From contig CBDBOH010000003.1 of the NCBI GenBank assembly GCA_965208215.1, positions 1,338,129-1,402,128 on the forward strand: 64,000 bases of DNA. The letters are read 5' to 3'. This DNA is from Chloroflexota bacterium (GTDB lineage Bacteria; Chloroflexota; UBA11872). A model generated the notes under the pieces. The model saw only the letters and a list, made by a program, of their open reading frames with translations, was not told the DNA's origin and did no database searches. Shown here in pieces: positions 6,034-64,000 of this stretch (its first letter is position 1; every line of letters begins with the position of its first letter). Both the position numbers and the translations under genes were made by a program.

Positions 6034-6109
6034 GGGCTGGTAGCTCAGTTGGCAGAGCAGCGGACTTTTAATCCGAAGGTCGTGGGTTCGAGACCCACCC
6101 GGCCCACCA
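6034..6109 (+). tRNA. tRNA-Lys (anticodon UUU)
   Basis: 76-nt cloverleaf. Acceptor GGGCTGG/CCGGCCC with one G-U. D-stem GCTC/GAGC. Anticodon loop C-U-UUU-A-A. T-arm GTGGG-TTCGAGA-CCCAC. Discriminator A and encoded CCA. One G-A mismatch at the top of the anticodon stem. Confidence 0.8.
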
Positions 6110-8924: not shown

Positions 8925-9250
8925 TGTCCGGCGACTGTCCGTGGCCCGAAGAATCCCGGCGAAATCGGTAGCCGCGCTTGCTCGCTGATAACCTCACACG
9001 TTGGTCGTTCTGGTCATGTGCTCACAATGCCCGGGGCCCGAGCCCTACCTGTCGTGTCGTGAAATATGATTCTTGGGGCTGTATATTGCCGCCAGTCTCC
9101 TCTCCAATCCGGGCGGATGAGGGTCAGCGTGGACACAGCATCGTCCGGTCGTGCCGCTCAAGCGGATTGGCAAGCGTCGCAGTCCATCGCTCGATACCAG
9201 AACCCCAACAAGACTGTCGTCACCGGTCGTTGCATGGAGGGAGTTAAGCC

Positions 9251-11437: not shown

Positions 11438-11446
11438 GTCCGCGAT

Positions 11447-12655
11447 ATGGATCCTGGGACATCGCGAGCTGCTGGGGGGGATCTACCAACCTGCTATCGC
11501 GATGGCTACGACAAGGCCCGCGCGCTTGATCCGGCGGTAGCCGCCAACTACGTCGCTCACACGCGCGTCGGCGATCCGGTCGCCGACGCGATGATGGCGA
11601 CGCTCGAAGATCTCGGGCCGCGGGAGTCGTGGCGGATCGTTCAGACTGTCATGGACAATCTGGATGACGAGCGCGCGCTGGCTGATGCGCCGCGCGAAGT
11701 CCGGGATTTCTTCGAGGAATTGAAGACCCCGCCCGATTGGGTCGACGAAGCGTCGTTCATCCCCGGAATGCGCATGTTTCATCGGAATTCCAGAATCATT
11801 CTGGGAGCGTTTGTTGGAGGGACGCTAGTCGAAGGGTTCGCGACCAATATCAGCAAGTCGTTTTTTACGACCGGCCGGCTGCGCGAGCAGGGGGTCAGGC
11901 GGCTCAAACAAAACAACCGGCACATGCTGGAGATGTTCGTCCCCGGTGGTATGGATCGAGGCGGCGATGGCTGGAAACTGTCCGTCCGAGTCCGCATGGT
12001 TCACGCCCAGGTTCGGCGCCTGCTCGCAAGCTCAGGCGATTGGGACTTTGATGAACTGGGCGAACCCGTGAGCGCCGCGCACCTTGGCTTTGCCATTACG
12101 GCCTTTTCCGCGCGACTGCTTAAGCACATGAAGAGCCTGGGCGCCGTCTATGACGACGAAGAACGCGCCAGTTTCATGCAGGTCTGGCGCTATGGCGGCT
12201 ACCTGATGGGCATTCCCGAGTCGATCTTGTACCGAGATGAAGCCGAAGCGCTGCGAATCTTCGAGATTGGTGGGATCTGCGAGCCCGAGCCGGACTTCGA
12301 GTGCATCGCGATGGCGAATTCACTGATCAACTCCGCCCCGTTGCTGATTGGCCTGACTGATCCCGATGAGCGCCGCCACCTTGCCAAGTACGTCTACCGG
12401 GTGTCCCGCGCGCTCATCGGCAAAGACCTCGCCAACAAGCTGAAGTATCCGCGCAGCCCAACCGTCGGCGTGCTGCCCTGGTTCCGCATGCAGGGCCGGA
12501 TCGAACGCACGCTGGGCCGGCTCTTTCACAAGCACCTGCAACAGACCAACTACACCAATCTCACGTCGTTACTTGAAGTGTCCGTATTCGACGAGGCCGG
12601 AATCAGCTACAAGATGCCCGACCATGTTTACGCTGAAGAATCCACCAAGTGGTAG
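11447..12655 (+). CDS. Hypothetical protein, possibly DUF2236 / MpaB-type oxygenase family
   Basis: 402 aa, 10 nt downstream of the MMPL gene and probably co-transcribed. Contains an R-x-x-H-A-x-V-R block (VRVRMVHAQVRRLL) that I recall as the DUF2236 hallmark. The family call is from memory only. Confidence 0.45.
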   Translation: MDPGTSRAAGGDLPTCYRDGYDKARALDPAVAANYVAHTRVGDPVADAMMATLEDLGPRESWRIVQTVMDNLDDERALADAPREVRDFFEELKTPPDWVDEASFIPGMRMFHRNSRIILGAFVGGTLVEGFATNISKSFFTTGRLREQGVRRLKQNNRHMLEMFVPGGMDRGGDGWKLSVRVRMVHAQVRRLLASSGDWDFDELGEPVSAAHLGFAITAFSARLLKHMKSLGAVYDDEERASFMQVWRYGGYLMGIPESILYRDEAEALRIFEIGGICEPEPDFECIAMANSLINSAPLLIGLTDPDERRHLAKYVYRVSRALIGKDLANKLKYPRSPTVGVLPWFRMQGRIERTLGRLFHKHLQQTNYTNLTSLLEVSVFDEAGISYKMPDHVYAEESTKW

Positions 12656-12799
12656 CGCGATCCAGAACGCGAGCGACCTGGCGATTACCGGCGAAACTGG
12701 TTTTCGCTTCAGTTCCAGACCGGTCAGCGGGCCCTTAGCGAAGGTAACCGGACGACGACACCCTGGCCGGCCGGCGCTGTCGAGTCAGCACCACGTCAG

Positions 12800-13546
12800 T
12801 CAGGAATGAGGGGATTCCGCCACTGTCTTCGAGTTGCCACTTCGCCGTCGGTCCAGGCGCAGTCGACCGCGCGTGCCCGCAAGATCTTTGAGCCGCGAGG
12901 ACTCCTCCCATGTGCTGTCAATGTAGCCAGCCTGCTTGTAAAACTCACGTGCGGCACGGTTTTCGGCCAGCACGTACAGGCTGCAGGCGGACGATTGGCG
13001 ATCCGCGTGTTGGTGCACATTGGCCAGCAGTGCCTTGGCCACGCCGTTGCCGCGGTGCTTTGGGAACACCGCCAGGTACGGGATGAACCAATGATCCACG
13101 GGTACGGCAGGGCTTGCGCGGATCAGCATTCGCAGCCTTGGCAAGAGCCGGAAGAACCCCCACGGACCGTACACGCGCAGGTAGGCCAACATCGTGGCTC
13201 GATACCGCCGGGCCAGTTCCGTCCACGGCGCATGCGACACCATGCCGGCCACCTGACCGTCAACCTCGGCCAGCGTGACCAGGTCGTAGCTCCACAAGGT
13301 GCCGGGTCGAGCGAATAGCCGCTCCAGGTAGCTCGTGGCTGCGCCTTCGTCCCCGAGTCCAAACACGGCGTCCGCCAGTTCCGGCGTCAGTGCTTCGCGC
13401 AGCAGATGACCCGCCGAACGCTTGTCCTCGAGCCGGGCGCGACGGAGCTTTGGCCCTGCCTCCGTGGGCTGGTGACGCTGAGCGACGTTGAGATCAATAT
13501 CGGCAACGGCCTCGGCCGTCGCACTCGCCAGCACAGCCCCGCTCAT
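12800..13546 (-). CDS. GNAT family N-acetyltransferase
   Basis: Acetyl-CoA binding motif FPKHRGNGVAKALL and a GNAT-like fold. Confidence 0.75.
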   Translation of the reverse strand: MSGAVLASATAEAVADIDLNVAQRHQPTEAGPKLRRARLEDKRSAGHLLREALTPELADAVFGLGDEGAATSYLERLFARPGTLWSYDLVTLAEVDGQVAGMVSHAPWTELARRYRATMLAYLRVYGPWGFFRLLPRLRMLIRASPAVPVDHWFIPYLAVFPKHRGNGVAKALLANVHQHADRQSSACSLYVLAENRAAREFYKQAGYIDSTWEESSRLKDLAGTRGRLRLDRRRSGNSKTVAESPHS

Positions 13547-42347: not shown

Positions 42348-43814
42348 CTAAACCGCCGCTCCATACACCCCCGCCGCATTCCCCTCCCGCGGCGTCCCCG
42401 GCACCATCGGCCCATGCGGCCGCCCCGCAATCAGCCGCGATCCGTCCGTAAATCCCTCCGGGCGGTCCCTCAGCCGCTCGATCAGCCGCTCCCGCCACGG
42501 TCTCAGGTCCGCCGTCCCCGCCAGGTCCCGCGTCTCATCCGGATCCTCGGCAATATCAAAAAGCTGCTCCCGACCCGACTGGCTGTACCAGATGTACTTG
42601 GTGCGGCCGTCCGTGATGAAGTGCCACGCCGTCTCCGGCCGGTTTTTCCCGCCCGAGTGCTCCCCGTGCAGCGTCTCCCGCCAGCTTGGCGTCTCCCCGC
42701 GTACGAACGGCATCAGGCTCCGACCCGTCACCGACTCCGGAACCTCCAGCCCCACCCCGTCCAGGATCGTCGGCATCACGTCCTGCAGGCCCACCGGCTC
42801 GTCGCGGACCACGTGCGTCGGATAGTCCCCCGAGGGCGGGCCCAACACCAGCAGCGGCACCCGCGCCGCCGCCTCGTACGGCCACGACTTGTGAAACAGC
42901 CGGTGATCCCCAAGCATCTCGCCGTGGTCCGACACGAACACCACCAGCGTGTCGTCCAGCAGTTGCATGTCGTTCATGTACTGCAACAGCCGGCTGATCT
43001 GCATGTCCACGTGGTTGATCAGCCCGTAATACCCCGCCCGGCAGGCGTGCATCACCCGTGCGTCCAGCTCCAGCCCCTGCGAGCGCGCCTCCTGCATCTC
43101 GATGTCGATCCCCCGCGTCGGCGCCTCCACCGGGTCCGCCCAATCCCCGATCACCGGGTTCGGCAGGTCCCGCCAGTGGTACCGGTCGTAGTAGAACCGC
43201 GGCGGCGTAAACGGCGGATGCGGATCAATGAACGACACCTTCAGAAAGAACGGCGCGCTCGCATCCCGCCGCTGCAGGAAGTTGATGGCCTCGGACACGC
43301 ACCAGAACGCGTGCGTCCGCTCCTCCGGCAGGTAGCTCGGGCGCCCGATCCACCCGTTCGGCGTCGCCCCGTGCGCCATCGCCCAGCGATTGAGCGGGAT
43401 CTCCCCGTGCAGCCAGTCCAGGTAATCGTTCCCGCCGCCCCGCGTGCTGTCCGCCAGCGACATCCGGTCAAACCCGTAGCGCTTCCGCTTCGGCGCCAGG
43501 TGCAGCTTGCCGCTCAGCCACGTCTCGTATCCGGCTGACCGCAGCTCGCCCGCCAGCGTCGCCGGCGGGTCCCACGCGGTATCCGGGTGGTTTTGCAGCA
43601 TCCCGTGCGTGGCCGGATCCTGGCCCGACATCAGCGTCCGCCGCGCGGGAATGCACTGCGGACACTCCGCGTAGGCGCGACGGAACCTCGCCCCCGTCGC
43701 CCCGATCTCGTCCATTACCGGCGTCTGCAACACCGGATGGTCCTCGATCCCCAGGCAATCGCCGCGCTGCTGGTCCGTCACCAGCAGCAGCACGTGCGGT
43801 CGCTGGGCGCTCAT
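42348..43814 (-). CDS. Sulfatase (formylglycine-dependent)
   Basis: Signature CPQCIPARRTLMSG (C-x-P-x-R) and N-terminal VLLLVTDQQRGD metal-binding block. Confidence 0.85.
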   Translation of the reverse strand: MSAQRPHVLLLVTDQQRGDCLGIEDHPVLQTPVMDEIGATGARFRRAYAECPQCIPARRTLMSGQDPATHGMLQNHPDTAWDPPATLAGELRSAGYETWLSGKLHLAPKRKRYGFDRMSLADSTRGGGNDYLDWLHGEIPLNRWAMAHGATPNGWIGRPSYLPEERTHAFWCVSEAINFLQRRDASAPFFLKVSFIDPHPPFTPPRFYYDRYHWRDLPNPVIGDWADPVEAPTRGIDIEMQEARSQGLELDARVMHACRAGYYGLINHVDMQISRLLQYMNDMQLLDDTLVVFVSDHGEMLGDHRLFHKSWPYEAAARVPLLVLGPPSGDYPTHVVRDEPVGLQDVMPTILDGVGLEVPESVTGRSLMPFVRGETPSWRETLHGEHSGGKNRPETAWHFITDGRTKYIWYSQSGREQLFDIAEDPDETRDLAGTADLRPWRERLIERLRDRPEGFTDGSRLIAGRPHGPMVPGTPREGNAAGVYGAAV

Positions 43815-43821
43815 GCCTGGC

Positions 43822-44865
43822 TCAGGTCCAATCGATCATGATCTTGCCGGTCGTCGCCGAGTCCGCCAGCCTGAAGGCCTCTATCGCCTCGCCGATCCGA
43901 ATCCGCTTCGCGATCACGTCCTTCACCGGCAGCTTGTGACGCCGCAGGAAGTCCAGCAGGTCTTCCCACTCGTACAGCTTGAAGATCCACGAACCCGTCA
44001 GCGTGATCTCGCGCGCGTTCAGCGGGGCGCTCAGCTTGTAGACGGTCTCCTCGCCGATCCCCACTTCTACGAAGATGCCGTGTGGCCGCAGCCCTTCCAG
44101 CGCCGCCGTGCGCGCCGGCGTAAAGCCTGACGTGTCGATGGCCGCGTGCACGCCATCGCCGCCCCCGAACTCCCGCATGGCCTCCACCGGGTCGGTCTCC
44201 GCCGCATTGCACGTCGCGTCGATCCCCAGCTGCTCCGCCATCTCGATCCGGCTCGGCTGTACGTCGATCCCCAGCACCGAGGCCCCCATCGCCCGCGCAA
44301 ACATCACCGTGTAGAGCCCCACCGGGCCCAACCCACTCACCGCCAGCGTCATGTCGCCCGACGCCTTCGCCTTGCGCACCGCTCCGAACGCCGTGCCCAG
44401 GTTGCACGCCAGCAGCGCGCCGTCCTCATAGTCAAAGTCGTCCGGCAGCGGCAGCGTGCTGCGCGCCGGCACCACCACGTAGTCGGCGTTCACCCCGTCG
44501 CGCACCCAGTTGAACCCCTGCATGTCGCGACAGAACCCCGGCTCCCCGCGCCGGCAGTGCTCGCAGTGCCCGCAGCCGATCAGGTGATAAATCACCACCC
44601 GGTCACCCACCGCCGGATGCGTAACCCCGGGACCCACCGCGTCCACCACCCCGGCCCCTTCGTGCCCCAGCGTCAGCTTGCTGTAACCGTGCTCGTCCCG
44701 TTCGGCCTGGGGCTGCCGGTACTTATGCAGGTCGCTCCCGCAAATCGCCGACCCCATGATTCGAATCCGCACGTCGTCCGGCCCCGGCTCCGAAACCGGC
44801 TTCGTCGTCAACTCCACCGTCCGATCGCCGGGACAGATAAGGCACTGCATGCGGTCTGAGGTCAT
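43822..44865 (-). CDS. Zinc-dependent medium-chain alcohol dehydrogenase
   Basis: Zn ligands GHEGAGVV, structural zinc CGHCEHCRRG, and a Rossmann GLGPVG. Ends 7 nt upstream of the sulfatase start. Confidence 0.85.
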   Translation of the reverse strand: MTSDRMQCLICPGDRTVELTTKPVSEPGPDDVRIRIMGSAICGSDLHKYRQPQAERDEHGYSKLTLGHEGAGVVDAVGPGVTHPAVGDRVVIYHLIGCGHCEHCRRGEPGFCRDMQGFNWVRDGVNADYVVVPARSTLPLPDDFDYEDGALLACNLGTAFGAVRKAKASGDMTLAVSGLGPVGLYTVMFARAMGASVLGIDVQPSRIEMAEQLGIDATCNAAETDPVEAMREFGGGDGVHAAIDTSGFTPARTAALEGLRPHGIFVEVGIGEETVYKLSAPLNAREITLTGSWIFKLYEWEDLLDFLRRHKLPVKDVIAKRIRIGEAIEAFRLADSATTGKIMIDWT

Positions 44866-44966
44866 CGGGGCGTCACTTCCTGCTCCCTCCAGCCCGTGAA
44901 CCTAACGCCCCCCACCCCGCCCCGTAAACTCTCAGGCCGCTTCAGACCTGATGCAGGAGGCGCGCC

Positions 44967-45779
44967 GTGCCCCCCTTCGCTGAACTCAAAGACCGCGTCG
45001 CCATCGTCACCGGCGCCGCCCAGGGCATCGGCTGCAGCACCGCCGTTACCCTTGCTAGCCACGGCATGCCCGTCGTCCTCGCCGACCTCAACGACGACCG
45101 CGGCCAGCGCGTTGCGTCTGAGATCACAGCCGCCGGCGGCCGCGCCGCCTACGTCCACGCCGACGTCGGCACGATGGCCGGCTGCGAAGAAATGGTCCAA
45201 ACCGCCCTCCACCGCTTCGGCGGCGTCTACGCCCTCGTCAACAACGCCCGCTGGCACCCCCACGACAAGCTCGTGGACGTCACCGAGGCCGACTGGGACC
45301 GCAGCCAGGACGTGCTCATCAAGTCCCACTTCATGGCCTGCAAGCTCGCCATACCCCACATGATCGCCGGCGGCGGCGGCTCCATCGTCGGCATCTCGTC
45401 TGCCCACGCCATCCAGGTCAACTCCATTGAGGGCCCCTACGAAGCCGCCAAGGCCGCCATCAACGCCCTCATGCGCAACGTCGCCGTCGCCTATGGCGAA
45501 CACGGCATCCGCGCCAACAGCATCTTGCCCGGCGGCATCATGACCGACGTCAAATACGAAGCCGCCGCCCTTGATCCCACTCCCGAGCTCGACGCCCGTC
45601 AGGCCCTCCAGAACCCCGTCCGCCGCCGCGGCGACGCCCAGGACATCGCCAACGCCGTCCTCTTCCTCGTCTCCGACCTCGCCGGCTTCGTCACCGGCGA
45701 ATCCCTCGTCGTCGACGGCGGCATGTCCATCGAACTCCCCGGCTCCATCGCCAGCCGCATCACGGGCCTTGACATCTGA
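44967..45779 (+). CDS. SDR-family oxidoreductase
   Basis: VAIVTGAAQGIGCSTA, NNAR, and YEAAK catalytic motif. Confidence 0.85.
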   Translation: MPPFAELKDRVAIVTGAAQGIGCSTAVTLASHGMPVVLADLNDDRGQRVASEITAAGGRAAYVHADVGTMAGCEEMVQTALHRFGGVYALVNNARWHPHDKLVDVTEADWDRSQDVLIKSHFMACKLAIPHMIAGGGGSIVGISSAHAIQVNSIEGPYEAAKAAINALMRNVAVAYGEHGIRANSILPGGIMTDVKYEAAALDPTPELDARQALQNPVRRRGDAQDIANAVLFLVSDLAGFVTGESLVVDGGMSIELPGSIASRITGLDI

Positions 45780-45881
45780 CGGCGGCCCTTCAGTTTGAGA
45801 GTCAGCGCGAGGCCGTAATGGCCGCCGGGCCAGTCGCGGGATGCCCTTGACTTAGTAACGTGCCGCGCAACCTGCGGATCC

Positions 45882-45889
45882 TGTAGAAT
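45882..45889 (+). promoter_or_regulatory. Extended -10 promoter element TGTAGAAT
   Basis: TGn-TAGAAT ends 6-7 nt before the first base of the conserved leader (CAGTCGGG at 45896). Confidence 0.5.
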
Positions 45890-45895
45890 TATTTA

Positions 45896-46155
45896 CAGTC
45901 GGGTTTGCGAACGGCAATGCCGGACGGGTCGCAAAAGGACCGCCGGCAAATGATGGTCACGGGCCTGGGGTGAGGGTTGCGATGCCCCGGCAGCGCCCCG
46001 CGCAGGCGGGCCGCGGCTCCAGCCCGGGCTAGTGGGCGGGCCGCGAATCGCGAGATCTGCATCGTGGCTTGGTCCACCGCTGACGTCGAAATGGAAGCGG
46101 CGTCATACAAGCGCGCCCCGCGCGCAAGCCGGAGCGCAGAATCGGAGAGCCCGCT
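45896..46155 (+). ncRNA. Conserved ~260-nt 5' leader of paralog A (candidate cis-regulatory RNA)
   Basis: ~93% identical to the copy-2 leader although upstream DNA has diverged. GC-rich with hairpin-prone segments (GGGGTGAGGGTTGCGATGCCCCGG). Confidence 0.4.
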
Positions 46156-46797
46156 GTGAGATGGATCAGAACAATTGCCGTCGGACTGGCCGTGGCCCTC
46201 ACGGCCATCGCGCTCAGCGTCGGCCTCGTCACGGCCGATGACTGCAATCAGCCGGCCCCTGATGACTTTCGGTCCGACGTGGCCTGGGATGGAACGGGGC
46301 TGCATCATCAACCACAAGACGTGCAGGACCTGTTCAGCAGGGTCTGGGGGACCGACGACGATCTTCATGTCCGCACCTGGGCCTGGCAGCACAACTGCCG
46401 AACGCAGCCGCGCGAAGCGGCGGGCGACCCGGCGCACGGGTCCTCGATAAGCGACGATCAGGACGCCGCTGGAGCCTTGGGCAGCCTGGCCGGCCCCCAG
46501 CGGCAGTCGCTTTCCGAATCGAGGGTCAACCTTGCGAATGTGACCACGGGCGGCCCCTGCCGCAGTTCATCCTGGCCAAATCCGGATCAGAGGGAGCTCA
46601 TCGCTGCGGGCGAGTGGTATTTCTGCAATGAGAGCACCGGTGAATGGGTCCTGCGCAAGCGCGCGAGACCGTCGATCGACTACGCCACGGACGATCAGTT
46701 GGTGGCGCCCGAGGTTGGCCACTGTACGTCAGGCTTCACGCACTATGACCCAATTGCCCGGACCTGCATCCTGTATCCGGATGGGCCTGACGTGTAA
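46156..46797 (+). CDS. Secreted Cys-containing hypothetical protein, paralog A
   Basis: Signal peptide MRWIRTIAVGLAVALTAIALSVGLVTA. N-terminal ~90 codons near-identical to paralog B. Variable acidic linker. C-terminal ~60-aa domain with 4 conserved Cys (FCN...HYDPI..TC..YPDGPDV). Confidence 0.65.
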   Translation: MRWIRTIAVGLAVALTAIALSVGLVTADDCNQPAPDDFRSDVAWDGTGLHHQPQDVQDLFSRVWGTDDDLHVRTWAWQHNCRTQPREAAGDPAHGSSISDDQDAAGALGSLAGPQRQSLSESRVNLANVTTGGPCRSSSWPNPDQRELIAAGEWYFCNESTGEWVLRKRARPSIDYATDDQLVAPEVGHCTSGFTHYDPIARTCILYPDGPDV

Positions 46798-46987
46798 AGC
46801 CGAATAAGGGCCGCGTCGCCGACCGCGCAGTGTCCATCGAACTCCCCGGCGCCATCGCCAGCCGCCTGACCGCCTCGACATCTAACGCCGGCCATTTGGT
46901 TGGCGAGGCCGTGCGAGTCCGGGGCGGCCACCAGGTCTGGCGCGCGCTGCCGGTGATGCAGGCACGCGCGGCGCAGGCTGCGGAGCG

Positions 46988-46995
46988 TGTAAAAT
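46988..46995 (+). promoter_or_regulatory. Extended -10 promoter element TGTAAAAT (copy 2)
   Basis: Same position relative to the conserved leader (CAGTCGGG at 47001), although the surrounding promoter-proximal sequence has diverged. Confidence 0.5.
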
Positions 46996-47000
46996 CATGC

Positions 47001-47262
47001 ACAGTCGGGTTTGCGAACGGCAATGCCGGACGTGTCTCAAAAGGACCGCCGGCGAAACGATGGCACCGGGTCTGGGGTGAGGGTTGCGATGCCCCGGCCG
47101 CGCCCCGCGCAGGCGGGCCGCGGCTCCAGCCCGGGCTAGTGGGCGGGCCGCGAATCGCGAGATCTGCATCGTGGCTTGGTCCACCGCTGACGTCGAAATG
47201 GAAGCGGCGTCATACAAACGCGCCCCGCCCAGAAGCCGGAGCGCAGATTCGGGGAGCCCGCT
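47001..47262 (+). ncRNA. Conserved ~260-nt 5' leader of paralog B
   Basis: See 45896-46155. Confidence 0.4.
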
Positions 47263-47904
47263 GTGAGATGGATCAGGACAATTGCCGTTGGGCTGGCCGC
47301 GGCCCTTACGGCCATCGCGCTTAGCGTCGGCCTCGTCACGGCCGATGACTGCAATCAGCCGGCCCCTGATGACTTTCGGTCCGACGTGGCCTGGGATGGC
47401 ACGGGGCTGCATCATCAACCACAAGACGTGCAGGACCTGTTCAGCAGGGTCTGGGGGACCGACGACGATCTTCATGTCCGCACCTGGGCCTGGCAGCACA
47501 ACTGCCGAACGCAGCCGCGCGAATCGGCGGGCGACCCGGCGGACGAGTCCACGACAACCGACGATCAGGACGCCGATGACGACTCAAGTGGCCAGTCGGG
47601 CGGCGGGCGCGAAAAGCGTCCCGAATCGGGAGTCAACATGGCGCACGTGGCCACTCGAAGTCCCTGCCACGGCCAGACTCGGCCAAACATAACCACGGAG
47701 GAGGTCATCCAGGACGGCGCGTGGATTTTCTGCAATGCGGAAACCCGCCAGTGGTTCAAAGCCAGGCGTGTGATCCCGGGAGTCGACTATGCCGCGGACC
47801 ACCAGCTGGTGGCGCCCGGGGTTGGCAACTGTGCGGACGGCCAAACGCACTACGATCCCATCAGCAAAACCTGCATGTTCTACCCGGATGGGCCCGACGT
47901 GTAA
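47263..47904 (+). CDS. Secreted Cys-containing hypothetical protein, paralog B
   Basis: Same architecture as paralog A. The central region (DDQDADDDSSGQSGGG) differs. Confidence 0.65.
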   Translation: MRWIRTIAVGLAAALTAIALSVGLVTADDCNQPAPDDFRSDVAWDGTGLHHQPQDVQDLFSRVWGTDDDLHVRTWAWQHNCRTQPRESAGDPADESTTTDDQDADDDSSGQSGGGREKRPESGVNMAHVATRSPCHGQTRPNITTEEVIQDGAWIFCNAETRQWFKARRVIPGVDYAADHQLVAPGVGNCADGQTHYDPISKTCMFYPDGPDV

Positions 47905-48039
47905 GGCTGACCAGGAACCTCGCCGCGTCCATCGCGAGGCACATGCCCGGCCTCGAGGTCTCGAGGTCGGGCCTCTCAGGTCAGACGCTTGAAGGCCGGA
48001 GGCGGACGAACGCCCCAAATGCTCGGTTGCGGAAACGCG

Positions 48040-48058
48040 GTGATATCATTGCTATCAC
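48040..48058. promoter_or_regulatory. Inverted repeat GTGATA-N7-TATCAC, 30 nt upstream of vapB
   Basis: Read from the sequence. Candidate VapB operator. Confidence 0.35.
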
Positions 48059-48087
48059 TGTATGACGTTTCTGGCGAAGGCTCTGTC

Positions 48088-48333
48088 ATGGCCAGCATCA
48101 TCGTGCGCAACCTCGACGAAGGGCTGAAACACCGCTTGCGCATCCGGGCGGCTGAGAACGGGCGGTCCATGGAGGAGGAAGTCCGCGACATCCTTCGAAC
48201 GGCGCTCAACAACCAGCCCGCGGCGCCGGAGAATCTGGCAAGCGCGATCCGCGCCCGGTTCGCGCCGTTGGGCGGCGTCGAACTGGACCTGCCGCCTCGC
48301 TCACCCATGCGCAAGCCGCCTCGATTCGACTGA
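48088..48333 (+). CDS. vapB: VapB/FitA-like ribbon-helix-helix antitoxin
   Basis: MASIIVRNLDEGLKHRLRIRAAENGRSMEEEVRDILRTAL is a typical RHH antitoxin N-terminus. ATG 48088. The longer track ORF starts at 47989. Confidence 0.7.
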   Translation: MASIIVRNLDEGLKHRLRIRAAENGRSMEEEVRDILRTALNNQPAAPENLASAIRARFAPLGGVELDLPPRSPMRKPPRFD

Positions 48334-48343
48334 CACGGCCGCG

Positions 48344-48766
48344 ATGATCGTCCTGGACACCAACGTCGTCTCGGAGTTGATGCGTCCCAATCCCAGTTCC
48401 CGCGTCATGCATTGGGTTGCCGCACAGTCGGTGCCACGGTTGTACCTCTCCACCGTTAGCGAAGGCGAGTTGCGCTACGGCGTGGAAATCCTCCCATCCG
48501 GTAATCGGCGAACCCTATTGCAGGACCAGATTGAAGGAATGCTCTCGGAAGACTTCGCCGGCCGCATCCTGCCCTTTGACCGCGCGGCGGCCCACGCCTA
48601 CGCCGCGATAGCCGCCGCCCGACGCGCTGCCGGGCGCCCGATCAACCACGCCCACTGCCAGATCGCGGCCATAGCTCGGTGCCGGGGAGCTTCAGTGGCA
48701 ACCAGGGACGTCGTCGGCTTCGAGGGAAGCGGCATCGACGTGATCGATCCTTGGACGGATCGCTGA
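48344..48766 (+). CDS. vapC: VapC-family PIN-domain toxin
   Basis: MIVLDTNVVSE (first acidic residue), further conserved D/E, and the C-terminal TRD motif. 140 aa, 10 nt after vapB. Confidence 0.85.
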   Translation: MIVLDTNVVSELMRPNPSSRVMHWVAAQSVPRLYLSTVSEGELRYGVEILPSGNRRTLLQDQIEGMLSEDFAGRILPFDRAAAHAYAAIAAARRAAGRPINHAHCQIAAIARCRGASVATRDVVGFEGSGIDVIDPWTDR

Positions 48767-48796
48767 ATTCGCCTGGGGCGATCACGGGAATCAACG

Positions 48797-49465
48797 ATGG
48801 AGACCTTTGACACCGAGTCCCTCACCCGGGAGTTCCGCTCCCGGGTCGACGCCCTGGCGTCACCCAGGGTGCCCCGCGTCCGGCCCATCCGCCGTGAATT
48901 CTCAAGAAGAGTCTCTTCCGCCCAACCGGAGCAGGTGCTCGAGCTGGCCGAGCGCCTGATCGACCTCGACCTGCGAATCTGGGCCTACGAAGTCGTCCAC
49001 TACCACCGCCCCACCCTCAGAACCCTGGACGCCGCCACCATCGAGTGCCTCGGCCAGGGCCTCGCCGACTGGGCCTCCGTCGATGTCTTCGGCGGCTATC
49101 TCGCCGGCCCCGCCTGGGTGAACCGGCAGATTACTGATCAGGACGTGCACCGCTGGGCCAGGTCCCCGGATCGCTGGTGGCGCCGCACCGCCCTCGTGGC
49201 CACCGTCGGCCTCAACACCAAGACCCGCGGCGGCTACGGCGATGCCCCCCGCACCCTCGTCGTATGCGAAATCCTGGCCGACGACCGCGATGACATGGTC
49301 GTCAAAGCCCTCTCCTGGGCCCTCCGCACCCTCGCCAACCACGACCCCACGGCCGTCCAACACTTCCTCACCACCAACCAGCACCGCCTCGCCGCTCGAG
49401 TCAAACGCGAAGTCCGCAACAAACTCACCACCGGCATCAAAAACCCACGCAAGACACCCGGCTGA
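48797..49465 (+). CDS. DNA alkylation repair enzyme-like (AlkD/AlkC-type HEAT-like repeat) protein
   Basis: 222 aa. Helical-repeat profile and conserved blocks (WWRRTALVATVGLN, VVKALSWALR) typical of the DNA_alkylation family. Confidence 0.7.
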   Translation: METFDTESLTREFRSRVDALASPRVPRVRPIRREFSRRVSSAQPEQVLELAERLIDLDLRIWAYEVVHYHRPTLRTLDAATIECLGQGLADWASVDVFGGYLAGPAWVNRQITDQDVHRWARSPDRWWRRTALVATVGLNTKTRGGYGDAPRTLVVCEILADDRDDMVVKALSWALRTLANHDPTAVQHFLTTNQHRLAARVKREVRNKLTTGIKNPRKTPG

Positions 49466-49646
49466 TCACTCAGGCAACAGTCGCCCCGGCGCTGTTACAA
49501 GGTGCCCCCGAATTGAATCGCCTGTCTCCAGGCCAGCGCCCGCGACCCTTGTGCGAGAGCGCACTCACCCGATAAACGCGGAGGCTGCGACCGCGACCCG
49601 ATAGGCTGGCCAGGGCAAGGCAACGTCGTCATCGATTGGTGAGACC

Positions 49647-50174
49647 GTGGAGCGATGCGCGACCCGGCCAATTACGGTCGCGGCATTGGTTGGCGTCGTT
49701 GCTTGCGTGGCGGGCCTCGCCTGGCGGCAGGCGCGGCTGGCCGGACTGGACTTGCTCGACAGCCGGGGCTGGTACACACCCGCGGAAGCGGCGGCCCTGT
49801 TCGACGCCCTCGACCAACTCGACTCGAGCGCGCGAGTCGTCTATGCAGCCACCGCGCTCACCATCGACATGGTCTTTCCGGCCTGCTACGGCCTGCTCTT
49901 GGCCATCCTGCTGTTCCGGCTGTTTCGAGGCGGGCCGCCGCTATATCTGCTGCCCCTGATGGTCGCCGTAACGGATGCGCTGGAGAACATCACCGTCGCG
50001 ACGCTCGCGCTCACCCACGCCGGTGCGCCGTCTCAGCTGGCCTGGTTGGCTGCCGTCTTCACTGTGGGCAAGACCGGCCTGTTTCTAGCCACCTTGGCTG
50101 TAACAGGCGTCGGCGGGGTGCGCTGGCTGTGGCTACGCACACGGCCGCACGCTGACCAGGGAACGGCTTCTTGA
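49647..50174 (+). CDS. Hypothetical integral membrane protein (4-5 TM helices)
   Basis: Hydrophobicity pattern only. No family recognised. Confidence 0.45.
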   Translation: MERCATRPITVAALVGVVACVAGLAWRQARLAGLDLLDSRGWYTPAEAAALFDALDQLDSSARVVYAATALTIDMVFPACYGLLLAILLFRLFRGGPPLYLLPLMVAVTDALENITVATLALTHAGAPSQLAWLAAVFTVGKTGLFLATLAVTGVGGVRWLWLRTRPHADQGTAS

Positions 50175-58992: not shown

Positions 58993-61900
58993 TCACGCCG
59001 CCTGCGTCACCGTAATCGTCACCGTCGTCGTCGCCGACGGGCTGTCGCGGCTGGTGCTGGCTTTGATGGTGAGGCTGTAGCTGGACGTGGTGGCGTGGCT
59101 CAGTTGGGCGCCCACCGCCAGGGTTCCGGCCAGCGCGTCCACCGCCCAGTGGCCGGCGGCGTTGCCCGCCGTGATGTCGTAGACCACCGTCGCCCCTTCC
59201 GGATCCGTGGCCGTCACCGTCCCGATCTTCGTGCCGATCAGCACGTCCTCCGCCACGCTGAAGCTGTACGAGGTCGCCCCGAAGACCGGCGCCTTGTCCG
59301 GCTTCGTCACCGTGATCGAGATCGTCGCGGTGGCCGTCCCGCCGGCCGCGTCGCTGACCGTGACCGTCAGGCTATAGCTGCTGGTGGTAGTGCGGTCCAG
59401 CGTCCCCGCCACCGTCAGCGCCCCCGTGCTGGAGTTGAGCGCAAAGTCCCCGGCGTCATTGCCCGCCGTCAGCGCATAGGTCAGCGTCCCGCTTTCCGGG
59501 TCGGTCGCCGTCACCGTGCCCACGGCCGCCCCCACGGCCGCGTCGTCGTCCACGCGGAAGCTGTAGCTGGTCGCGCCGAACGCCGGCGCCTCGTCCACGT
59601 CCGTCACCGTCACGGCTGCCCCCACCGTCGCGCTGGCCGTGGCCGTGCCGCTGTGGCTGGTGGCGCCGACGGTCAGGCTATGGCTGGCGGTCGTCTCGTA
59701 GTCCAGCGCCCCCGCCACCGTCAGCGCCCCGGTCGCGGCGTCGATCGCGAACGTCCCGGCGTCATTGCCCGCCGTGATCGTGTACGTCACCGCCTCGCCT
59801 TCCGGGTCCGTCGCGCTGACCGTGCCCACGGCCGCCCCTGCCGCCGCGTCCTCCGCCACCGACCATGCGTAGCTCTCCGCCCCGAACACCGGCGGGAAGG
59901 CCGCGTTCGTCACCGTGATGGCCACGTCCGCCGTGCCCGTGTGGCCCGCGGCGTCGCTGGCCGTCACCGTCAGGTTGTAGTCGTCCGCCGTCTCGTAATC
60001 CAGCGTGCCCGCCACCGTCAGCGCGCCGCTGTCCGCGTCCAGCGCAAAGGCCCCCGCCTCATTGCCCGCCGTGATGGCATAGGTCAGGTCGCCGGCCTCG
60101 GGGTCGGTCGCGCTGACCGTGCCCACCGCCGCGTCCGTGGCCGCGTCCTCGGCCACTGAGAACTCGTAGTCCGCGGTCCCGAACGCCGGCGCCTCGTCCA
60201 CGTCCGTCACCGTCACCGTCGCCGTGACCGTCGCTTGGCTGCCCCCCGCGCGGGCCTCCACGGTCAGCGCGTGACTGGCGCTGGCCTCGTGATCCAGCGT
60301 CCCCGCCACCGTCAGCGCCCCGGTCGCGGCGTCGATGGCGAAGCCTCCGGCGTCGTTGCCCGCGGTGATGGCGTACGTCACTGAGTCCGACCCCGTGGTC
60401 GTGGCCGCCACCGTCCCCACGGCGGTGGCCGCGGCGCTGTTTTCGGCCACGCTGAACGCATAGGACTCCGCCCCAAACACCGGCGGCGGACACGCCCCGG
60501 TGGTCGCCGCCAGGGCCGTCGAGGGGGCGCTCCAGGCGTTGGTGTAGCCCGCCCCGCTGCCAAACGCCCGCACCTGGACCTCGTAGGCCGTCGCGCAGGT
60601 CAGGTCGGCCAGCGTGGTGCTGGCGGTGGTCAGGTCATCCGCCGCCGTCGTCCAGGCCTCGGCGCCGCTGGTCCGGGAGTCCACCTGGTACTTCGTGGCC
60701 CCGGTCACCGCGTCCCACCTGAGCGCCAGGCTGGTGGCCGCCGGCGTGGCCGCCACGTTGGCCGGCGCCGGCGGCGCGTCCTCCACGTCCGTCACCGTCA
60801 CGTTCACCGTGGTCGTGGACGTCAGGCGGCTGCCTTCCAGGACGCCGGCCCGCACCGTCAGCGTGTAGGTCGCCGTGGTTTCGTAGTCCAGCCAGTTGGC
60901 CACCACCAGCCGCCCGGCCAGCGCATCCACCGCCCACTGGCTGGCCGTATCGCCCGCCGTGATGTCATAGATCACCGTCCCGCCTTCGGGGTCGCTCGCC
61001 GCCACCGCGCCGATCGCGGCGCCGATCGGGGCGTCCTCCGCGACGCTGAACGCATAGCTGTCCGCCCCGAAGACCGGCGGCTCGTCCACGTTCGTCACCG
61101 TGATCGTCACCGGGACCACGGTGGCGGCCGCCGGGCCGCTGCGGGCTTCGACGGTCAGGTGATAGGTGGGCGCGGTCTCGTAATCCAGGGTCCCCGCCAC
61201 CTTCAACTCGCCGGTCGTGGCATCGATCGCCCACACGTCGTCCGTGGTGCCCGCCGTCAGCGTGTGCGTGACCGCCGCCCCGCCGGCCACGGTGGCCCGG
61301 ATCGTTCCGATCTGGATGGCGACGGCCGTGTCCTCGGCCACCGTGAAGGCGTAGCTGGCCGCCCCGAAGACCGGCTGCGGGGGCACGTCGAGTACCGTCA
61401 CGGTCACCGTGGTCGTGGCCGTGCCGCCGTGGGCGTCGGTGGCCGTCAGGGTCAGCGTGTAGCTGGGCGTCGTCGCGTGGTCCAGCGCCCCCGCCACCGT
61501 CAGCTGGCCGGAGGTTGTGTCCAGGGCAAAGGCGCCGCCGGTGGTGCCGGCCGTCAGCGCATAGGTCAGCGGGCCGCCGTCGAGGTCGCGGGCCGCGGCC
61601 GTCCCCACCAGCGTGCCCACCGCCGCGTCCTCGGCCACGCGGAAGGTCCAGCCGCCCGCCGGGAACAGCGGCGGCGCGCGCTGCCGGACCGCGTCGGCTA
61701 CCCCCACCGCCACCGGGACGCGCGAGACGCCGCCCCGCGCGTCCGTGGCCGTGACCGTGAGGCTGGCCCCGCCCGCCGGCAGCGTCCCGGCCACCGAAAG
61801 GACGCCGGTGCTCGCGTCCAACTTGAACACCCCGGCGTCGTTGCCCGCCGTGATGGCGTAGGTGACCGTCCCGCCGCCCGGATCGGTGGCCTGTACCTGG

Positions 61901-64000
61901 CCAATGGCCGCGCCCACCGGCAGCCCGGCCGGCACGATCCACTCGTAGCGCGGCGCCCCGAAGGCCGGGCCCGCCTGGCAGGCGGCCAGGCCCTGCGCCG
62001 CCGCGTCCGTGGTCGTCACCGCCGCTAAGGTCCCCGGCAGGCAACCCGTCAGCCGGGTGCCGCCCAGTCGCAGCTCCGTCAGCCGCGTCAGGGTCCCCAG
62101 GGCCTCGGGCACGTCGCCGGTCAGCGCGTTGCCGCGCAGGTCCAGCGCGGTCAGCTGGGTCAGGTCGCCCAGCGCCGCCGGCACGGGCCCGGTCAGGCCC
62201 TGCGCGCCCAGCCGCAGCCCGGTCACGCGCTGCGGCGTGCCGCCCACGGTCACCCCGGTCCAGGCGCTGAGCGCGCGCGTCCCGTCCCAGTTCAGGCGGC
62301 CGGGCCCGGCCAGCGCGTCGCGCGCCGCCAGCAGGGCCGCGCAGTCCTGCACCAGGCCGGTATTGGTGGTGGGATTGGGCACCGTGACCCCGTTGCTGCA
62401 CGGGGCCGAGGCCGGCGCCGGCCAGCTCAGCGTCACCGGCGCCGAGTGGGCCAGGGCGCCCGAGGCGTAGCGGGCCTGCACCCGCCAGGTGCCGGTGATG
62501 GCCGTCAAGGCACGCGCCCCGTAACTGGCGCCCGCGGCGCCCACCGGCGTCCAGACCCCGCCCACGTCGCGCTGCCACTGGTAGGTCGCCGCGCCCGCGT
62601 CGGCGGGCACGGCCGCCGTCAGGGTCGCGGTGGCGCCGGCCGCCGGCGAGGCCGCATCGACCGTCACCGTGGGCAGGGCGGGGGCGCCGGGGCAGGCCGG
62701 GGCCGCCGGCGGGGCGCCCGCCGGGGCGGCACTGATCCGCAGCATCAGGCGCTCGCCCGGCTGCCAGGGTTGCGTACACACCGGCCAGCGCAGCTCGTGG
62801 CCGCCCGCCGTGGCCGTGCGCGCGGCGGCGTCGCCGCGCAGCGTCAGCCCCACCGTGCCGTCCAGCCGGATCAGCTCCAACTGCTGGCCGGCCAGGGTCG
62901 TCCCGGCCACGTCCAGCCGCAACTGCCCCGCGTCCCAGGTCAGCCGCCGCAGGGTCGCGGCCGATGTGCTGGCCCCGCTGGCCCCGCGGCTCGCCGCAGC
63001 GGCCGCGGCGTCGCCGGCGACGCCGACCGCCGCCGGCGCCAGCACCCCCTGCGCGGCGTCCCGCCCGACCACCCCGCTGCCCAGCGCCGCCGGATCGAAG
63101 AACGCCTCGTGCACCGTCCCCGCCGGCGCCGTGACCGTGACGGTGAAATGACCGTAGGCGTCGTCAGGTACGAAATTGCAGACAAAGCGCGTGTACTGCT
63201 GGGAATTGTAGAAGACGTCGTACTCGCCGGCCGGCAATGGGCGCGCCGCGACCAGGAGGTGGTCGTAGCCGGTGCTGGCTTGGCCGTCGTCGTCGCTGAT
63301 TCGCACCTCGAATTGCGCCGCGTTCGGGCCACTGAGCCAGTAACGGCTGTACTCGGGATCGTCATGCGCATTGGTCCCGCGACTCAACTCGGTCGCCGCC
63401 GCCGACCCGGAGGGAATCGTCACTGCTTCCTGCAATGGCGTCCACGGGTCGGCACGGTTATATCGTTCACGGAGGACTCTGCCGTAGAGGCAGCCTGCGT
63501 ACCCATCAATGCCTTCCCCGGCCTTCAGTTCCGCCTCCATCGTCGCGATCCGGGCCCGCAGGTCAACGAGGGTAATGGTGGGCGGCGGTGATTGCGCGCC
63601 GTCCGTGATGAAGGACGTTGGTACCTCGCCCTCGGCCGGCGTGTCCTGCGCCGGCAACCAGGCCCGGCTCAGCGTGTCCACGCTGTAGGCCCACGGCGGT
63701 TGGTCGTAGTTCGATAACACGAACTGCCAGGCGGACGGGGTGTACGGCCGCGACGGCGTCTCCAGGAAGAGCACCGCCTGCCGCGCGTCCCAGGTCGAGA
63801 CCCGCGCCTGCACGGTCCAGTCCGCGAAGTCGCGGGCCTCGGCCTCCACCGGGTTCGCGTGCCGACCGCGCACCACCACCAGCAGGTCGGTTGGGCCGCT
63901 GCCCTTCAGGTACTCGTGCACCGCGAAGCGCAACTCCTGGACCGACAGGTAGGTGGGCGCGACGCCGGGGTCGCTGGGCAGCGTCTCCGTCGTCGCCGTC
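58993..64000 (-). CDS. Giant cell-surface protein with LRR, ~10 cadherin-like repeats and an FN3 domain (N-terminus beyond the window)
   Basis: Frame is open to the window edge, more than 1,660 aa. Leucine-rich repeats (LTGPVPAALGDLTQLTALDLRGNALTGDVP). Repeated ~100-aa cadherin-like units (PVFGAESYAFSVAED...VTYAITAGNDAG.FAID..TGALTVAGTLDYET...YTLTV.A.D). An FN3-like segment (LALRWDAVTGATKYQV). Stop at 58993. Confidence 0.85.
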   Translation of the reverse strand, partial: TATTETLPSDPGVAPTYLSVQELRFAVHEYLKGSGPTDLLVVVRGRHANPVEAEARDFADWTVQARVSTWDARQAVLFLETPSRPYTPSAWQFVLSNYDQPPWAYSVDTLSRAWLPAQDTPAEGEVPTSFITDGAQSPPPTITLVDLRARIATMEAELKAGEGIDGYAGCLYGRVLRERYNRADPWTPLQEAVTIPSGSAAATELSRGTNAHDDPEYSRYWLSGPNAAQFEVRISDDDGQASTGYDHLLVAARPLPAGEYDVFYNSQQYTRFVCNFVPDDAYGHFTVTVTAPAGTVHEAFFDPAALGSGVVGRDAAQGVLAPAAVGVAGDAAAAAASRGASGASTSAATLRRLTWDAGQLRLDVAGTTLAGQQLELIRLDGTVGLTLRGDAAARTATAGGHELRWPVCTQPWQPGERLMLRISAAPAGAPPAAPACPGAPALPTVTVDAASPAAGATATLTAAVPADAGAATYQWQRDVGGVWTPVGAAGASYGARALTAITGTWRVQARYASGALAHSAPVTLSWPAPASAPCSNGVTVPNPTTNTGLVQDCAALLAARDALAGPGRLNWDGTRALSAWTGVTVGGTPQRVTGLRLGAQGLTGPVPAALGDLTQLTALDLRGNALTGDVPEALGTLTRLTELRLGGTRLTGCLPGTLAAVTTTDAAAQGLAACQAGPAFGAPRYEWIVPAGLPVGAAIGQVQATDPGGGTVTYAITAGNDAGVFKLDASTGVLSVAGTLPAGGASLTVTATDARGGVSRVPVAVGVADAVRQRAPPLFPAGGWTFRVAEDAAVGTLVGTAAARDLDGGPLTYALTAGTTGGAFALDTTSGQLTVAGALDHATTPSYTLTLTATDAHGGTATTTVTVTVLDVPPQPVFGAASYAFTVAEDTAVAIQIGTIRATVAGGAAVTHTLTAGTTDDVWAIDATTGELKVAGTLDYETAPTYHLTVEARSGPAAATVVPVTITVTNVDEPPVFGADSYAFSVAEDAPIGAAIGAVAASDPEGGTVIYDITAGDTASQWAVDALAGRLVVANWLDYETTATYTLTVRAGVLEGSRLTSTTTVNVTVTDVEDAPPAPANVAATPAATSLALRWDAVTGATKYQVDSRTSGAEAWTTAADDLTTASTTLADLTCATAYEVQVRAFGSGAGYTNAWSAPSTALAATTGACPPPVFGAESYAFSVAENSAAATAVGTVAATTTGSDSVTYAITAGNDAGGFAIDAATGALTVAGTLDHEASASHALTVEARAGGSQATVTATVTVTDVDEAPAFGTADYEFSVAEDAATDAAVGTVSATDPEAGDLTYAITAGNEAGAFALDADSGALTVAGTLDYETADDYNLTVTASDAAGHTGTADVAITVTNAAFPPVFGAESYAWSVAEDAAAGAAVGTVSATDPEGEAVTYTITAGNDAGTFAIDAATGALTVAGALDYETTASHSLTVGATSHSGTATASATVGAAVTVTDVDEAPAFGATSYSFRVDDDAAVGAAVGTVTATDPESGTLTYALTAGNDAGDFALNSSTGALTVAGTLDRTTTSSYSLTVTVSDAAGGTATATISITVTKPDKAPVFGATSYSFSVAEDVLIGTKIGTVTATDPEGATVVYDITAGNAAGHWAVDALAGTLAVGAQLSHATTSSYSLTIKASTSRDSPSATTTVTITVTQAA
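59010..61900 (-). repeat. Intragenic ~290-300-bp tandem repeats encoding the cadherin-like domains
   Basis: Recurrent PVFGA(E/T)SY(A/S)F(S/T)VAED blocks at ~100-aa spacing in the translated product. Confidence 0.6.

Follow-up and report, generated by a model that had tools for sequence, protein, structure and literature searches.

The tandem unit downstream of an SDR gene

A 64,000-nt stretch of DNA (the window) from a Chloroflexota bacterium (GenBank assembly GCA_965208215.1, contig CBDBOH010000003.1, positions 1,338,129 to 1,402,128 of the forward strand) was analyzed for a tandem duplication that carries two paralogous genes, X1 and X2, coding for a protein designated X here. The array starts in the 3′ end of an intact short-chain dehydrogenase/reductase (SDR) gene (44967..45779; Pfam adh_short_C2, 1.3e-58), which is the syntenic neighbor of X in all related loci, and all of its elements are on the + strand. 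Unit 1 (about 45704-46810; 1,107 bp) comprises the SDR 3′ end, a leader, and X1, and unit 2 (about 46811-47910) comprises an SDR relic, a leader, and X2. The two units align head to tail and collinearly over their full length with an equal period, showing 82.9% identity across 1083 nt (blastn, E=0), and a repeat finder placed direct-repeat families 1107 (1106) nt apart. These values are far beyond chance and indicated that the duplication reported in a preliminary description of the window is real. The adjacency of two units likewise held up, but their start had to be moved from 45724, since the homology begins at about 45704/46811. No third copy of the unit was found by blastn within the 64-kb window.

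In unit 1, the last ~75 nt of the SDR gene and ~15 nt beyond it form the left direct repeat (45704-45790). A poorly conserved spacer (spacer 1, 45780..45881) runs from the SDR stop codon to a −10-like element, TGTAGAAT, with the hexamer TAGAAT (45882..45889), followed by a putative 5′ untranslated region (UTR) of ~260 nt (leader 1, 45895..46155) and by X1 (46156..46797). The protein encoded by X1 was divided into a putative signal peptide (amino acids [aa] 1-27, 46156-46236), an N-domain with 2 Cys (aa 28-86, 46237-46413), a linker (aa 87-133, 46414-46554), and a C-domain with 4 Cys (aa 134-213, 46555-46794). The unit junction holds relic 1, a pseudogenised SDR 3′ end of 75 nt (46811..46885). 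Unit 2 continues with its own −10-like element, TGTAAAAT (46988..46995), leader 2 (47002..47262; 93% identical to leader 1), and X2 (47263..47904), and relic 2, a degenerate SDR 3′ end, lies at 47915..47979. Both open reading frames (ORFs) are intact and 213 aa long, as described before, and their proteins are 69.5% identical.

Identity between the units forms an uneven mosaic. In 100-nt blocks of a global alignment, it is 78-85% in the SDR relic, 68% in the promoter-proximal spacer, 91, 100, and 90% along the leader, 97-100% over the first ~90 codons, 65-79% in the linker, and 64-76% in the C-domain. The corresponding values by segment are 84% for the SDR relic, 68% (67.6%) for the spacer, 89% for the 5′ part of the leader, 100% for its middle, 90% for its 3′ part together with the signal peptide, 99.4% for the N-domain, 70% for the linker, and 67% for the C-domain. 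The mosaic was thus described correctly at first, but leader and N-terminus are not uniformly alike: two near-identical tracts are split by stretches at which identity drops to 87-90%. Tract 1 (45993..46110, equivalent to 47100-47217) extends over 118 nt with 0 differences, and tract 2 (46216..46416, matching 47323-47523) over 201 nt with 1 difference. Spacer and linker, which had been called almost unrelated, are in fact both about 65-70% identical.

Related loci and the SDR relics

Homologues of X are few, 14 at E<=1e-3 among 5.8 billion clustered proteins, and wherever a source is named (P0003) or a public genome record was traced (L006, L007), it is a Chloroflexota/Chloroflexi metagenome-assembled genome. 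X was absent from the plasmid and phage collections searched. We compared 18 relative loci (L001-L018), 17 of which form an SDR-linked clade. These 17 loci are syntenic and carry a single X, in the order sulfatase, Zn-ADH, (VapBC), SDR, X, FitA/PIN, and DNA_alkylation. X1 is the orthologue of the single-copy X of L001, the C-domains being 83.5% identical (100% bootstrap), and the X2 C-domain is <=73% identical to that of any sampled lineage. Between genomes, C-domains are 64-84% identical, except within the L004/L007 and L015-L017 groups (89-99%); comparing the SDR 3′ region (last 280 nt) of the window with that of its relatives gives 90-95%.

The preliminary description had placed the duplication breakpoint inside the SDR gene because each unit begins with the 3′ end of that gene. 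Its position stands, but the relic is no by-product of the duplication; it is older and served as the substrate of recombination. Among the single-copy loci whose downstream sequence was fetched, an SDR relic lies directly 3′ of X in L001, L004/L005, L007, L008, L009, L011, and L014-L017. It spans about SDR codon 246 to the stop codon plus about 15 nt of post-SDR spacer; most lineages have a relic of 39-75 nt, whereas that of L009 and L014 measures 217 nt. The single-copy state thus has direct repeats on both sides of X, the SDR 3′ end before it and the relic after it, with the exception of L010, where an SDR relic of 245 nt is located upstream of X. Relic 2, missed in the preliminary description, matches the SDR 3′ end at 47/65 positions, a score reached by 0/300 shuffles, and the post-X region of L001 at 71/91 positions; it is the orthologue of the post-X relic of single-copy genomes. 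Since such a relic occurs both after X in single-copy relatives and after X2, it predates this duplication, which means that direct repeats, on which unequal crossing-over usually acts, enclosed X beforehand.

Relic 1 matches 45704-45790 at 74/88 positions and the post-X relic of L011 at 79/94. It is a hybrid: on the left its flank resembles the sequence found after X, on the right the SDR-X spacer, as would be expected if the two repeats had undergone unequal crossing-over. Relic 1 also lacks 1 nt six codons ahead of the stop codon, a deletion that would frameshift a real SDR gene, so it is a pseudogene fragment. This property also bears on the possibility of an assembly artefact, in which haplotypes of a hypervariable locus from two strains would have been fused head to tail. 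The locus is indeed hypervariable between strains, the assembly is that of an uncultured genome and comes without reads, and the SDR 3′ end and relic 1 have a 20-nt exact word in common. Yet relic 1 is decayed and frameshifted and starts only 75 nt before the stop codon, so that it is not the end of a functional SDR gene from a second strain; in a contig of 1.9 Mb, 20 nt of overlap do not suffice for a misjoin; identity in patchy tracts is what co-resident paralogues bring about; and tandem or rearranged X cassettes arise independently in L018, L010, and L009. We regard an assembly artefact as very unlikely.

Rearranged forms of the locus were seen in several relatives. L010 (1-1183) carries SDR, then vapB′, the 245-nt SDR relic, and X, and L009 (4640-5640) and L014 (1095-2085) carry X, about 170 nt, an SDR relic of at least 217 nt, and vapB′. 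In all three, the vapB gene has ATC replacing its ATG start codon and vapC is missing. L018 (4001-8393) belongs to a different Chloroflexota lineage with an unrelated gene context, and its X is split between N-domain and C-domain by an insert consisting of an IS1595 transposase, an N6/N4-methyltransferase-HNH gene, and an 87-aa ORF, a block that is duplicated at L018 1-302. A second, degenerate copy of the N-domain lies at L018 8113-8310, indicating that tandem X arrays recur. Orthologue segment histories are discordant, too: for L004 versus L010, dS (synonymous divergence) is 0.027 in the N-domain and 0.31 in the C-domain, and the relation is reversed for L016 versus L017. From these comparisons, the locus is recombinogenic in general.

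Divergence, tree discordance, and identity tracts

Divergence was estimated pairwise by the method of Nei and Gojobori (NG86), and the resulting ratios of nonsynonymous to synonymous divergence (dN/dS) are confounded by recombination. Between X1 and X2, dS is 0.027 in the N-domain (1 synonymous difference/37 sites), 0.24 in the signal peptide, 0.40 in the linker, and 0.72 in the C-domain, the last being as large as between the deepest orthologues. Between X1 and L001, the two domains give 0.35 (N) and 0.37 (C). The SDR baseline between these genomes is 0.13-0.27, and the GC content at third codon positions (GC3) is 0.90 for SDR versus 0.76 for X. When the window copies are paired with other orthologues, the N-domain gives a dS of 0.31-0.64. 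These data indicated that synonymous sites of the N-domain are free to change and that the identity of the paralogues does not come from selection; the same range ruled out synonymous constraint or an overlapping element in the N-domain.

Neighbor-joining (NJ) trees of the segments disagree with each other. For the C-domain, X1 groups with L001 at 100% bootstrap and with X2 at 0%, X2 being placed outside the (X1, L001) pair, and the linker and spacer trees also recover (X1, L001), at 68%. The trees of three leader segments and of the N-domain join X1 with X2 instead (77%, 97%, 88%, and 99% bootstrap, respectively). A Sawyer-type permutation test on 635 polymorphic alignment columns was then used to evaluate runs of sites at which X1 equals X2. 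It yielded P<5e-5 for a run of 75 consecutive polymorphic sites at 45994-46110 in tract 1; tract 2 contains runs of 22 and 39 such sites, the longer of which (46294-46416) has P=1.5e-4. The window copies differ from L001 at 8 sites in tract 1, and inside both tracts they share about 28 states that differ from L001. Synonymous divergence, discordant segment trees, and run lengths agree with one another, and all bear out gene conversion of leader and N-terminus, the first of two options proposed in the preliminary description. On the strength of these comparisons, the duplication appears older than the split between this genome and L001, and the mosaic results from gene conversion superimposed on it, in at least two recent events.

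Could the identity of leader and N-domain simply reflect very strong purifying selection on an RNA element and a protein, with no conversion? The N-domain protein is nearly invariant family-wide, and the leader is more conserved than the spacer, as this would predict. The orthologue N-domain dS already contradicts it, however. Furthermore, the leader module holding tract 1 is deleted in L015-L017 and is the most variable part of the leader among orthologues (58-94% identical); being absent from these three, it does not owe its identity to selection. The derived states shared by the window copies inside the tracts are a further point against this explanation, which we hold to be extremely improbable.

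The second option of the preliminary description, strong diversification of linker and C-domain, would mean that a recent duplication had been followed by their rapid divergence under positive selection. Both copies are still intact, and linker and C-domain are the fastest-evolving parts of X family-wide. By segment, dN/dS rises from 0.03-0.13 in the N-domain through 0.4-0.8 in the C-domain to about 1 in the linker, the full pairwise range being 0.14-0.81 for the C-domain and about 0.4-2.3, with a mean near 1, for the linker. Between X1 and X2, the linker ratio is 0.89, and the C-domain has a dN of 0.38 and a dN/dS of 0.53, which is <1; in pairwise NG86 estimates, the C-domain does not reach a dN/dS of >1. 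Positive selection on the protein does not raise dS, which is 0.72 in the C-domain versus 0.027 in the N-domain; the noncoding spacer is also just 68% identical; and the X1 C-domain is nearer to that of L001 than to that of X2 with 100% bootstrap. These results leave strong diversification as the cause of the mosaic highly improbable. Both copies are under purifying selection, and X2 has kept the six Cys and the invariant C-domain residues. A diversity-generating retroelement was considered as well and rejected, for the 121 mismatches include each of the 12 substitution types and show no adenine specificity. No reverse transcriptase was seen among the genes adjacent to X, annotated from 42348 to 50174.

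Unit 2 might also be an allele imported from a related strain, whose SDR-3′-X-relic DNA recombined with the resident relic and was inserted in tandem, conversion of leader and N-domain having followed later. The flanking repeats would permit such an insertion, and the dS contrasts of L004 versus L010 and of L016 versus L017 make between-strain recombination evident here. The X2 C-domain is close to no sampled lineage (at most 73% identical), and spacer 2 has motifs, such as GGCCGTGCGAG, in common with the spacers of L004, L009, and L011 and not with spacer 1. On the other hand, X2 stands beside (X1, L001), and not with another lineage, in the spacer, linker, and C-domain trees (47-87% bootstrap), and a donor-like allele was not found among the 14 homologues in 5.8 billion proteins. 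On this balance, an import is unlikely.

Taken together, the best explanation as a whole is an old tandem duplication via flanking repeats, with later partial conversion, of an accessory cassette made up of a −10-like element, a ~270-nt leader, and X, the gene for an exported two-module protein; we put its probability at roughly 70%. Ancestrally, a single X was flanked by the 3′ end of the SDR gene on one side and by a relic of that end on the other. Unequal homologous recombination between both repeats most likely yielded the order SDR-X1-relic1-X2-relic2 before this genome and its relative L001 split, and L001 would have lost X2 afterwards. Both copies were kept intact here while their spacers, linkers, and C-domains drifted apart to the C-domain dS of 0.72, until at least two recent nonreciprocal exchanges (gene conversion) rehomogenised the middle of the leader and the N-domain. 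Several points weigh against this account. The copy number rests on an assembly without reads, and both copies at this locus are kept in no other available genome. The X2 C-domain is sister to (X1, L001) at only 65% bootstrap, as the import of a foreign allele would allow, and the signal peptide was called by eye only.

Protein X, its leader, and known systems

In the family alignment, the signal peptide and the N-domain (2 Cys, four Trp) are nearly invariant, the 4-Cys C-domain is moderately conserved, and the linker is of low complexity and variable length, the homologous proteins being 201-233 aa overall. Thus, uneven conservation is a property of the whole X family and not only of the pair. 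The putative signal peptide, conserved in all homologues, consists of MRWIR, a 20-residue hydrophobic core, and VTA followed by DD, the predicted mature start. X may be exported via this Sec-type signal peptide, an uncleaved signal anchor being an alternative. Predicted disulfides are C30-C81 in the N-domain and two among C135, C157, C190, and C204 of the C-domain. The N-domain consensus is C-x(6-12)-DG-x2-L-x-x-Q/E-x3-V/I-Q/R-x-L-F-x3-W-G...H-V-R-x-W-x-W-E/Q-H-N-C, and that of the C-domain is C-G-x(4-6)-P-x-L...C-N/D-x2-T-G-E/Q-W-V...P-G-V/I-D-Y-A-x-D-D-Q-L...C...Y/W-D-P-I-x3-C.

An exhaustive hidden Markov model (HMM) search of 1.84 billion representatives gave 28 matches, which show that N- and C-domain are separable modules. 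The N-domain follows signal peptides in proteins with His-rich tails of the HxH or HWHCHG type (P0019, P0030, P0037, and P0038) and forms tandem repeats in P0027 and P0036. The C-domain ends larger secreted proteins of 267-649 aa with repeated "LVSNxGQ...AQxFTTG" modules (P0023, P0024, P0026, P0028, and P0033) and stands on its own in P0025 and P0031. P0020, a 1382-aa eukaryote-like repeat protein among the matches, was dismissed as spurious. A profile re-search of a word-indexed protein database added 4 new proteins with the C-domain and 2 with the N-domain. No Pfam domain was found in the proteins sharing either domain with X.

The anatomy of X (signal peptide, disulfide-closed modules, disordered linker, and segment-wise dN/dS) led us to a functional model as part of the best explanation. 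In this model, the N-domain would contact an invariant partner, e.g., the cell's own envelope or a conserved receptor, and the C-domain would act as a binding module whose target differs from strain to strain. With two divergent C-domains carried behind the same regulatory and N-terminal sequences, specificity would be broadened while regulation stays common. In a more far-reaching reading, which we consider unlikely, X1 and X2 would be polymorphic extracytoplasmic recognition proteins of a new type, with the invariant, disulfide-closed N-domain as a handle, the C-domain as the binding module, and both domains from undescribed families found in other architectures as well. The SDR-3′ repeats would then keep the locus as a recombining cassette, and the 5′ end of the ~270-nt leader, itself previously undescribed, would sequester the ribosome-binding region like a riboswitch or thermosensor. 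The searches for function gave the model no direct support: neither Pfam and NCBIfam nor PHROGs and PADLOC contained a match to X (the single Cap3 line, at E=0.07-0.09, is noise), and a sequence-profile search of PDB gave 0 matches at E<=10. The full-length AF2 model of X is poor and unusable, with a predicted local distance difference test (pLDDT) score of 45. The C-domain alone was modeled as a small alpha/beta unit (pLDDT 70), for which Foldseek against PDB and BFVD returned best E values of 2.4 and 0.46 with TM <=0.33, so that no fold was assigned. The functional model is speculative.

The leader was compared among 12 sequences, from both window copies, L001, L004, L007, L009-L011, L013, and L015-L017. 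The motif TGTAnnrT is found at the same place in 12/12, and conservation among orthologues begins there; the conserved block extends over 125-269 nt as far as a Shine-Dalgarno sequence (GGAGA) and a start codon (GTG or ATG). Identity is 62-93% among the leaders (63-93% for leader 1) and 49-75% among the spacers (49-69% for spacer 1 versus those of orthologues), and the middle ~110 nt of the leader is the part deleted in L015-L017. Each unit had been credited with its own promoter. A conserved TAnnnT hexamer where conservation starts is in keeping with that claim, but a scan with the sigma-70 consensus found no + strand promoter and did not call the −10-like hexamers, so that the promoters, with predicted transcription starts near 45895 and 47002, remain putative. 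An ACGTAC-like motif (AACGTRC) occurs at about 45855-45865 and 46960-46970 and at the same place in orthologues, ~20 nt upstream of the −10-like hexamer and inside the otherwise poorly conserved spacer; it might bind a regulator or serve as an atypical −35 element. Orthologue comparison revealed frame-breaking indels in the leader, which, together with the nonconservation of antisense ORFs, indicates that it is noncoding on both strands. The antisense ORFs at 45889-46437 and 46882-47499, which coincide with the conserved block, were rejected as genes because of these indels, because neither length nor frame is conserved, and because they have no Pfam match.

RNAalifold predicted 67 base pairs for the leader, 13 of which show compensatory changes versus 6.8 in column shuffles (0/500 as high) and 1-3 with the partners slid. 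The signal is weaker for the single-sequence minimum free energy (MFE) structure (13 versus 9.6; 42/500 shuffles as high), and the sequences are few and closely related. The most consistent predicted element is a helix between the first ~11 nt of the leader (about 45896-45906 in leader 1) and the stretch that separates the Shine-Dalgarno sequence from the start codon (about 46146-46157). This 5′-end helix appears in independent MFE folds of 12/12 leaders, with 5-17 nt paired, and a GGG/CCC to GAG/CUC double change in it occurs in L004 and L007 and is visible in L015, too. No Rfam match was obtained at E<=1 over 44800-48400 on both strands, and the distant relatives of X in L012 and L018 have no detectable leader homologue in front of them. 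It is plausible but unproven that the leader, as modeled, is a structured 5′ UTR controlling translation and possibly a new cis-regulatory RNA.

Downstream of the array, a FitA-like RHH antitoxin and PIN toxin pair (VapBC; 48088..48766, +; Pfam PF22513 at 2.4e-19 and PF01850 at 3.7e-10) is followed by a DNA-alkylation-repair gene; the pair is context and lies outside the duplicated unit. GC skew, computed in 1-kb bins, is slightly positive over 46000-48000 (+0.015 to +0.03), the bins to either side of it between 24 and 64 kb being negative, and GC3 is 0.76 for both X and the PIN gene versus 0.85-0.90 for the SDR, ADH, sulfatase, and DNA-alkylation genes. This compositional signature suggests that the X region consists of accessory genes. 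Elsewhere in the window, a 1646-aa ORF (58993-63933, − strand) contains many cadherin-like repeats (FSVAEDA..G..VGTV.ATDPEG..VTY.ITAGN) and an LRR-like stretch, and Tandem Repeats Finder (TRF) marked 297-nt tandem repeats at 59396-60380; the GC content of the ORF region reaches 0.80. A tRNA-Lys(UUU) gene is located at 6034-6109. The stretch from 8000 to 13000, a few kb further on, has lower GC (0.60-0.62 versus about 0.66 elsewhere), with a strongly negative AT skew (−0.33 at 8-9 kb), and could by its composition be an integrated element.

The event at this locus is a case of partial concerted evolution in which repeats, hybrid junction, copy age, and conversion tracts are readable from the sequence and its relatives. 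The process itself is ordinary and well known and changes no concept, whereas the X family, both domains, and the leader are uncharacterized. The analysis exposes two small domains, predicted to be extracellular and disulfide-bonded, which are assigned to no family and combine with other modules in uncultured bacteria, all of them Chloroflexota where taxon labels exist. It further exposes an unusually strain-variable locus, with C-domains 64-84% identical next to an SDR 3′ region at 90-95%, as well as a possible new cis-regulatory RNA in the form of the long conserved leader. Should X prove to act in surface recognition that is specific to strains, its locus would give access to the ecology of an uncultured clade.

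Among known systems, precursors of ribosomally synthesized and posttranslationally modified peptides (RiPPs), e.g., prochlorosin ProcA, combine a conserved leader with a hypervariable Cys-rich core. X resembles them in that its paralogues are nearly identical in the N-terminal part and vary in the C-terminal part, which contains Cys, but it has a putative Sec signal, 213 aa, and two domains that are each found elsewhere, and modification enzymes are not conserved nearby. In the antigenic variation of type IV pilins (pilE/pilS), gene conversion takes place between copies, and the likeness to X extends to a conserved N-terminus and a variable, disulfide-containing C-terminus. X lacks the prepilin-peptidase motif, however: its N-terminus, MRWIRTIAVGLAVALTAIALSVGLVTA followed by DDC, when read from the sequence, has no class III motif (G followed by F(M)xxxE), and we rejected a pilin identity. 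In addition, conversion homogenises the conserved part of X rather than diversifying the variable part, and each of the two complete X copies has a −10-like element, a leader, and a Shine-Dalgarno sequence in front of it.

Polymorphic toxin and effector loci such as CdiA-CT and the Rhs orphan arrays also join a conserved N-terminus to a variable C-terminus. Their likeness to the X locus includes a conserved N-terminal part with a strain-variable C-terminal module, tandem copies, recombination in the conserved part, and toxin-antitoxin neighbors. X differs in that it lacks a recognizable toxin domain, a neighboring immunity gene, and a domain dedicated to a secretion system, besides being a 213-aa protein with a putative Sec signal. 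A toxin/immunity locus was rejected, for Pfam, NCBIfam, PADLOC, and PHROGs revealed no toxin domain, and X is followed by an SDR relic and then by vapB.

Unequal recombination between flanking direct repeats is a general bacterial route to tandem duplication and amplification. As in that route, repeats flank the single-copy ancestor of the X array, the junction repeat is a hybrid, and loss or rearrangement variants occur in relatives. The repeats at the X locus are short, about 75-95 nt here and up to about 245 nt elsewhere, and 84-94% identical, and the copies have persisted until about 30% diverged, which sets the array apart from the general case. Finally, concerted evolution of bacterial paralogues by gene conversion is known, e.g., from tufA/tufB in Salmonella. 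That pair has in common with X1/X2 co-resident paralogues, nonreciprocal exchange, near-identity tracts, synonymous homogeneity, and trees that group the paralogues. X1 and X2 differ from it in that conversion covers only the 5′ half, namely, part of the leader and the N-domain, leaving the 3′ half to diverge, and in that the two copies are adjacent and born from preexisting flanking repeats.

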